From IMG/VR virus record IMGVR_UViG_2529293142_000008: a DNA stretch of 16,588 bases; one strand, given 5' to 3'. Numbering within the stretch: the stretch's first letter is position 1; the number at the start of each line of letters is the position of its first letter. Shown piece after piece: positions 14,749 to 15,449 of the stretch. The position numbers and the translations under genes are program-made. This stretch comes from a virus (Duplodnaviria > Heunggongvirae > Uroviricota > Caudoviricetes). The notes under the pieces are model-generated. The model saw nothing but the letters and a program-made list of their open reading frames with translations. It was not told the origin of the DNA and searched no databases.

Positions 14749-14772
14749 GGCACCAGAAATGGTGCCTTTTTT
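14749..14772 (+). terminator. rho-independent terminator after J (GGCACC-AGAAAT-GGTGCC followed by T6)
   Basis: Perfect 6-bp GC-rich stem, 6-nt loop and TTTTTT read directly, 22 nt after the J stop. Confidence 0.6.
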
Positions 14773-14796
14773 ATTGCAGAAAAGCGAGAGGTAATT

Positions 14797-15396
14797 ATGC
14801 GTAAACTTTATGCCGCCATTTTTTCCGCAGCCATTTGTCTGGCCGTATCCGGTGCGCCTGCATGGGCATCTGAACATCAGTCCACGCTGAGCGCGGGGTA
14901 TCTTCATGCCTCGACGAACGTTCCCGGCAGCGATGATCTGAACGGGATTAACGTGAAATACCGTTATGAGTTTACGGACACACTGGGGCTGGTGACATCA
15001 TTCAGCTATGCAGGAGACAAGAATCGCCAGCTTACCCGTTACAGCGATACCCGCTGGCATGAAGATTCCGTGCGTAACCGCTGGTTCAGCGTGATGGCGG
15101 GGCCGTCTGTACGCGTGAATGAATGGTTCAGCGCGTATGCGATGGCGGGTGTGGCTTACAGCCGTGTGTCGACTTTCTCCGGGGATTATCTCCGCGTAAC
15201 TGACAACAAGGGGAAAACGCACGACGTGCTGACCGGAAGTGATGACGCTCGCCACAGTAACACCTCTATGGCGTGGGGAGCTGGCGTGCAGTTTAACCCG
15301 GCCGAATCCGTGGCCGTTGATGTCGCTTATGAAGGCTCCGGCAGTGGCGACTGGCGCACTGACGGTTTCATCGTGGGTGTCGGTTATAAATTCTGA
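14797..15396 (+). CDS. lom: Lom-like outer membrane protein (Ail/Lom/PagC/OmpX beta-barrel family)
   Basis: ATG 14797 preceded by GAGAGG, 199 aa. N-terminal signal peptide [24 protein letters not shown]. Ends ...[15 protein letters not shown] with a terminal aromatic, typical of outer-membrane beta-barrels. Sits in the lambda lom position between J and stf. Confidence 0.88.
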
Positions 15397-15422
15397 TTAG
15401 CCAGGTAACACAGTGTTATGAC

Positions 15423-15449
15423 AGCCCGCCGGTTCAGGCGGGCTTTTTT
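15423..15449 (+). terminator. rho-independent terminator after lom (GCCCGCC-GGTTCA-GGCGGGC followed by T6)
   Basis: 7-bp GC stem plus TTTTTT read directly, 27 nt after the lom stop. Confidence 0.65.

Follow-up and report, generated by a model that had tools for sequence, protein, structure and literature searches.

A probable intact lom allele in the variable J-stf slot of a lambda-type head-tail module

Between the genes of the tail tip protein J and the side tail fibre protein Stf of a tailed phage (IMG/VR record IMGVR_UViG_2529293142_000008) lies an open reading frame for a protein of 199 residues, with a hairpin on either side. [quoted passage not shown] The locus raises two questions: to which family the protein belongs and whether the gene brings along the signals for its own expression. 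As regards the first, the feature is very probably an intact lom allele, a gene for an outer-membrane beta-barrel of the Ail/Lom type, situated in the variable J-stf slot of a lambda-type head-tail module. The second question requires that the DNA belonging to lom be separated from that belonging to its neighbours.

The window, i.e., the whole stretch of DNA analysed (16,588 nt), contains the head-tail gene set in the order known from lambda: head protease/scaffold, decoration protein, major head protein, FI, tail completion protein, major tail protein, G, tape measure, L and I, followed by J. The J homologue matches lambda 'Tip attachment protein J' in the PDB from end to end (8iyk_J, E=0). 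The head-tail module around lom is intact, and J, lom and stf all have the same orientation, that of the tail genes and the late operon. The features needed in the following are these:

11314 to 14727, plus strand: J, tail tip and host specificity, 1137 residues, upstream neighbour of lom (list of open reading frames)
14746 to 14775, plus strand: hairpin after J with a 10-bp stem and a GAAA loop, the stem at 14746-14769, followed by TTTTTTATT (terminator scan)
14776 to 15450, plus strand: lom cassette of 675 bp, comprising a 21-nt leader with a Shine-Dalgarno sequence, the lom reading frame and its own terminator (delimited by comparison with the empty site of HannyBb)
14786 to 14791, plus strand: Shine-Dalgarno sequence GAGAGG, 5 nt before the ATG
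14797 to 15396, plus strand: lom coding sequence with ATG start, 199 codons and stop, for a predicted eight-stranded outer-membrane beta-barrel of the Ail/Lom family
14797 to 14868, plus strand: predicted Sec signal peptide with cleavage after AWA at residue 24 (rule-based inspection of the translation)
15082 to 15149, plus strand: two pairs of direct repeats within the lom coding sequence, TGGTTCAGCG (15082, 15124; spacing 42 bp) and GATGGCGGG (15093, 15141; spacing 48 bp) (repeat search)
about 15300 to about 15800, plus strand: lambda-like DNA, 85-95% identical, covering the 3' end of lom, its terminator and the stf N-terminal domain (sliding identity to lambda; both limits approximate)
15423 to 15450, plus strand: lom hairpin with an 8-bp stem of which seven pairs are G-C and a 6-nt loop, the stem at 15423-15444, followed by TTTTTT (terminator scan)
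15461 to 16588, plus strand: 5' part of stf, side tail fibre, open over 376 codons and running off the window

The intact reading frame with a signal peptide between J and stf and the Shine-Dalgarno sequence of its own are both as initially annotated. Further observations concern the neighbouring genes. Residues 1-93 of Stf match the lambda tail fibre chain ('Tail fiber protein', PDB 9e7m_Ta, E 1.6e-51); this N-terminal J-binding domain is followed by a region rich in Ala, Glu and Ser and then by collagen-like G-X-Y repeats of about 110 residues, for which residues 247-361, approximately, gave matches to collagen in the PDB down to 2e-72. In the part of stf that encodes these two regions (16050-16588) the GC content climbs to 0.64-0.71. 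Long antisense reading frames cover stf, e.g., one of 286 residues at 15684-16544, and are most likely by-products of repetitive GC-rich coding. In the G homologue (5521-5943), a slippery heptamer, G GGA AAG in the zero frame at 5919-5925, precedes the stop codon by 16 nt; it matches the -1 frameshift site of lambda G/G-T. In Rfam, no family reached the gathering threshold anywhere in the window, and the matches in 14600-15600 were all at chance level.

The family assignment of the protein is based on several searches. Pfam profile PF06316 (Ail_Lom) is matched over its full length (all 199 residues on all 199 profile positions; 396.6 bits against a cut-off of 23; E 2.5e-119). Among the PHROGs, the match is to number 108, 'Lom outer membrane protein' (E 2.6e-108). 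Lambda Lom (9wso_C, E 5e-50) was the best match in the PDB; next came OmpX and Ail, at about 1e-17 to 1e-18. The Ail/Lom features noticed in the initial annotation, which had recommended such family searches, are borne out by these matches. Chain C of 9wso is the solved 'Outer membrane protein lom' of lambda (206 residues; two chains in the entry; 2026 copy of the PDB); PDB queries with J and Stf gave no match to this entry. The NCBIfam equivalog cut-offs for Rck (NF011777, 111.6 versus 258) and OmpX (NF006917, 97.5 versus 176) were missed, so that neither a serum-resistance nor an OmpX-like function is transferable to the 199-residue protein. Judged by these sequence scores, it is a Lom, without orthology to Rck or OmpX.

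The features of an exported barrel protein are in place. The signal peptide has a basic n-region (MRK), a hydrophobic core of 14 residues and the cleavage region SGAPAWA|SE with alanine at -3 and -1, and the mature chains of OmpX and Ail align to Lom from residues 25-29 on. The C-terminus, ...VGVGYKF, has the form of the aromatic beta-signal for BAM assembly, and its terminal F is invariant in the 36 aligned homologues. Beta-barrel modelling, also recommended initially, yielded an AF2 model with eight strands, the best structural matches of which in Foldseek were OmpX (1qj9, 4e-9) and Ail (3qrc); the Foldseek library did not include the lambda Lom entry 9wso. Since the mean pLDDT was 60.9, obtained with a shallow alignment of 36 sequences, the model was used only for topology and strand count, its loop geometry being unreliable at this confidence. 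The hairpins of strands 3-4 and 5-6 are long in this low-confidence model. From the sequence and what is known of the OmpX/Ail family, the Lom precursor would be exported by Sec, cleaved after AWA24 and inserted by BAM via the C-terminal ...GYKF signal as an eight-stranded barrel, with four loops exposed at the cell surface.

Three of these presumed surface loops are the parts in which the protein differs from lambda Lom. The overall identity to the lambda protein is about 47-49% (47% over 187 residues), and its distribution is uneven: loops L1-L3 are only 19-36% identical, whereas strands 2, 5, 6, 7 and 8 reach about 70-100% and the stretch of strand 7, L4 and strand 8 reaches 83-100%. The last 25 residues are identical. 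The 199-residue protein is shorter by 7 residues, with an L1 that is 8 residues shorter. The statement of the initial annotation that the N-terminus and the loops are unlike lambda and the last strands conserved thus holds. Divergence concentrated in the loops is expected of a surface-exposed protein, and a second cause is visible in the DNA. Identity to lambda is about 55% up to approximately position 15300, rises to that of the lambda-like segment, which extends into the first 340 nt or so of stf, and drops again past about 15800, the DNA outside the segment being about 50-60% identical. A mosaic joint is located near 15300, inside the 3' end of lom and away from the edge of the cassette. 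The C-terminus is identical to that of lambda because of this joint, and the conserved end is not a matter of functional constraint only.

The limits of the inserted DNA can be read from natural empty sites. The J-stf slot was sampled by tblastn with the stf N-terminal domain in phages across the identity range. In HannyBb the J stop codon is followed by ...GGGCGCCAGAAATGGCGCC TTTTTTATT and then directly by TGTGGAGTAAGT ATG-stf, with 60 nt from J to stf. The occupied site of the window has this hairpin and T-run too and continues with GCAGAAAAGCGAGAGGTAATT-lom-...-GCCCGCCGGTTCAGGCGGGC TTTTTT before reaching GTGGGGTGAAT ATG-stf. Both joints of the cassette are located directly behind a hairpin T-run, and the cassette ends immediately before the ribosome-binding site of stf. 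The leader GCAGAAAAGCGAGAGGTAATT is identical in all close relatives but one, which has a single base change; the leader of lambda differs. The empty J-terminator-stf junction occurs at full length in at least 1057 complete E. coli genomes and 29 phage records, and in phage 21, which has no lom, it was annotated by the curators as 'terminator' and 'ribosome_binding_site'. Since the J hairpin is present in HannyBb and phage 21, both without lom, the upstream terminator belongs to J and lies outside the lom cassette. Since colinear relatives do without lom, the gene is a genuine accessory insertion, in support of the moron idea. What stands of the autonomous layout claimed initially is an accessory gene with a terminator of its own; the upstream terminator, by contrast, is that of J, and a promoter was not found (see below).

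The J-stf slot has the look of a general site for envelope-protein cargo; PhiR5_1, for example, has the order J-Lom-fibre. Other occupants were seen as well. Gifsy-2 (locus L083, 2205-2447) carries an 80-residue reading frame whose N-terminus resembles a signal peptide and which has a GC hairpin with T6 of its own just ahead of stf, and PY54 (locus L085, 1466-2488) a 340-residue 'membrane protein'.

Terminators had been placed initially at 14749-14772 and 15423-15449, and the scan agrees with these positions within 3 nt. The two hairpins are the best-ranked terminator-like sites of the whole 16.6-kb window, with the lom hairpin at the top, and they occupy exactly the two intergenic gaps, that of 69 nt between J and lom and that of 64 nt between lom and stf. 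The raw count of terminator-like sites, four versus 2.6 +/- 1.7 expected, is not above chance. Compared with shuffled sequences, RNA folding gave z values of -3.05 for the J hairpin and -2.35 for the lom hairpin. The plus strand has two other strong terminator-like hairpins: one at 2972-2989, about 100 nt past the major head gene, where it overlaps the beginning of the FI-like gene, and one at 295-316 inside the first reading frame of the window.

Across 82 loci the J hairpin stretch exists in 15 sequence variants, with the stem formed as CACC/GGTG, CGTC/GACG or CGCC/GGCG. In 13 distinct sequences, a small sample of related sequences that renders the result supportive and not conclusive, 94.2% of the cells are paired; once the 3' partners are slid, the figure drops to 32-59%. 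Two pairs are altered on both sides by compensatory changes, and the covariation score was reached by none of 500 shuffles. The lom hairpin is conserved in the 82 loci, too much so for an analysis of covariation. Lambda has a hairpin of unrelated sequence with a T-run at the same place after J and a nearly identical terminator before stf, in which one stem pair is G-U owing to a C-to-T change in the 3' arm. The sequence variation suggests that the J hairpin is a selected RNA structure with a U-run, the signature of an intrinsic terminator, and with a GC-rich stem directly before a U-run both hairpins are intrinsic-terminator-like in sequence. One locus (L062, IMG/VR UViG_2874945390_000010) departs from this arrangement. 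A gene for an IS4-family transposase of 448 residues (95-1441) ends there just upstream of lom, and at about 1450-1500 the 5' arm of the J hairpin is interrupted by divergent sequence, which leaves a truncated stem (-7.2 versus about -15 kcal/mol). It was considered as a case of lom in another context and rejected, as the upstream gene belongs to an IS in the J hairpin.

The initial annotation had recommended a search for a sigma-70 promoter overlapping 14728-14796. Promoter scans revealed none above chance: a consensus scan found no sigma-70 site in 14000-16588, and a weight-matrix scan for -35 and -10 elements in 14300-14830 peaked at 8.05, whereas the shuffle maxima averaged 8.94. Consensus scans may miss weak, activator-dependent or alternative-sigma promoters. 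A conserved TATAAC at 14734-14739 was examined as a -10 element and rejected; no -35 element accompanies it, the variants do not preserve its TG extension and a transcript starting there would run into the terminator. The 21 nt between the left joint and the ATG are too few for a promoter and a leader, and a promoter farther upstream would have to transcribe through the strong, conserved J terminator. In the lambda late operon, Q-modified RNA polymerase ignores intrinsic terminators, and lom and stf are therefore presumably transcribed late despite the hairpins. During lytic growth the modified polymerase would read through both of them and lom would be made.

It could be argued that this is all there is to the expression of lom. 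As a pure late-operon gene it would have no promoter of its own and be transcribed only by Q-antiterminated read-through of the J terminator; the signal in lysogens would derive from a few spontaneously induced cells, and the role of the protein would be lytic or at the surface of dying cells. Such a gene agrees with the absence of a promoter above chance, with the 21 nt before the ATG directly behind a strong conserved terminator and with the orientation that lom shares with the tail genes. It also agrees with a microarray study in which lambda lom was undetected in lysogens, its promoter was described as little known and lom was followed by RT-PCR during induction (PMC2147009). Arguing against this possibility are reports that lambda lom, like bor, is transcribed in lysogens (PMC7067206, PMC1151598), and the finding that lom of phi24B is constitutive and uncoupled from phage regulation (PMC3342100), as confirmed by RNA-seq (PMC4651098), with similar levels in stable lysogens and induced cells (PMC3342100, PMC4651098). 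Moreover, lom is dispensable for plaque formation (bioRxiv 10.1101/2023.05.14.540688), and many lambdoid phages do without it. An exclusively late gene is on balance unlikely. The preferred reading, an intact lom gene that is probably also active in the lysogen, takes its evidence for autonomous expression from the published work on lambda and phi24B and not from the sequence of the window; by this analogy lom is probably expressed from the repressed prophage, and some of this expression is likely to be independent of the repressor. The lack of a recognisable promoter in the inserted DNA bears on the old, minor question of how lom is transcribed in lysogens.

A more far-reaching proposal concerns the missing promoter and, separately, the repeats inside the gene. 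Database alleles of Lom with 185 or 183 and 213 or 215 residues show exactly the 14- and 16-residue deletions and duplications expected from the TGGTTCAGCG and GATGGCGGG repeats, and the segment lost or doubled corresponds approximately to strand 4 and turn 2. Some of the deletion alleles are recurrent; one was found on 70 contigs, and the cluster of 183-residue proteins has 108 members. According to this proposal, which we regard as improbable, lom may be a promoterless cassette whose expression in the prophage depends on an unconventional start overlapping the J terminator or on conditional read-through, and independently the 42- and 48-bp repeat indels may be a recurrent on/off switch of a surface protein.

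The terminator-gene-terminator appearance may also be a by-product, with the hairpins serving mainly as module boundaries or stabilisers of RNA 3' ends and the T-runs as recombination joints for cargo swaps. Both joints of the cassette are exactly at T-runs, the different cargo of Gifsy-2 likewise ends before stf in such a hairpin with T6, and in L062 the 5' arm of the J hairpin is where the IS4-family transposase gene is found. However, compensatory substitutions maintain the pairing of the J hairpin (94% versus 32-59% when slid), lambda retains a hairpin of unrelated sequence after J, and the mosaic joint with lambda is inside lom near 15300 and not at a hairpin, all of which make this alternative very unlikely. 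It is hardly credible that the prophage is defective and lom a non-functional gene in decay: many database alleles carry the 14- or 16-residue deletions or duplications, truncations or fusions, but the present copy is full length on the 199-position Pfam profile, has an intact signal peptide, the C-terminal ...YKF and a Shine-Dalgarno sequence, shows no repeat-mediated indel and is surrounded by an intact head-tail module.

The gene identified here as a very probable intact lom allele is ordinary and already known, a textbook lambda gene that is present in nearly identical form in Stx-converting phages and most E. coli genomes. The 1-kb region around it has matches in 4769 of 5426 complete E. 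coli genomes, at a median of two places per genome, and in 230 phage records, mostly of Stx-converting phages with identities of up to 97%; the gene matched in E. coli is annotated as 'Ail/Lom family outer membrane beta-barrel protein'. Protein clusters of the 199-residue type comprise tens of thousands of member sequences. The nearest protein, an IMG/VR allele, differs in a single residue (T85I), and the exact 199-residue sequence is absent from a collection of 15 billion proteins. Within the 199-residue clade the signal peptide and L1 are most variable, and a segment of L2 exists in two forms, GDKNRQLTR and NAEDEQKTH. The importance of the analysis beyond annotation is small; what it adds are the limits of the cassette as defined against natural empty sites and the finding of no recognisable promoter in the inserted DNA.

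By fold and superfamily, Lom belongs with Ail of Yersinia, Rck and PagC of Salmonella and OmpX of E. coli, all of which begin with a signal peptide and end in an aromatic residue. Mature Lom (residues 25-199) has 175 residues, as against 148-157 in the OmpX and Ail chains aligned with it, and its gene is phage-borne, unlike the chromosomal or plasmid-borne genes of the others, the serum-resistance and invasion functions of which are not transferable to it. The literature on outer-membrane localisation, adhesion and serum resistance concerns lambda Lom only (cited in PMC3594210, PMC1151598), and only by analogy would the present protein act at the surface of the lysogen and influence adhesion or the interaction with the host. 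The morons of lambdoid phages (concept of Juhala et al. 2000; reviewed in PMC3594210) resemble lom in that it, too, is an extra gene between genes of essential modules, is absent from colinear relatives and has its own terminator. It differs from them in having no recognisable promoter in or next to the inserted DNA and in a GC content (0.56-0.57) that is not distinct from that of the 5' part of stf (0.53-0.59), the 3' end of J having 0.45. Lambda lom (lambda 18965-19585) occupies the same position between J and stf in the same orientation and its product belongs to the same Pfam family. Closest of all are the 199-residue Lom alleles of Stx-converting and other lambdoid phages of E. coli, among them phage Perceval (OV696612), phi458 (OP434518) and prophages of O55:H7 and O157:H7, annotated as Lom or Ail/Lom. 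Their DNA is 97-98% identical over 1 kb, gene order and terminators are the same, and the proteins differ by a handful of point substitutions.
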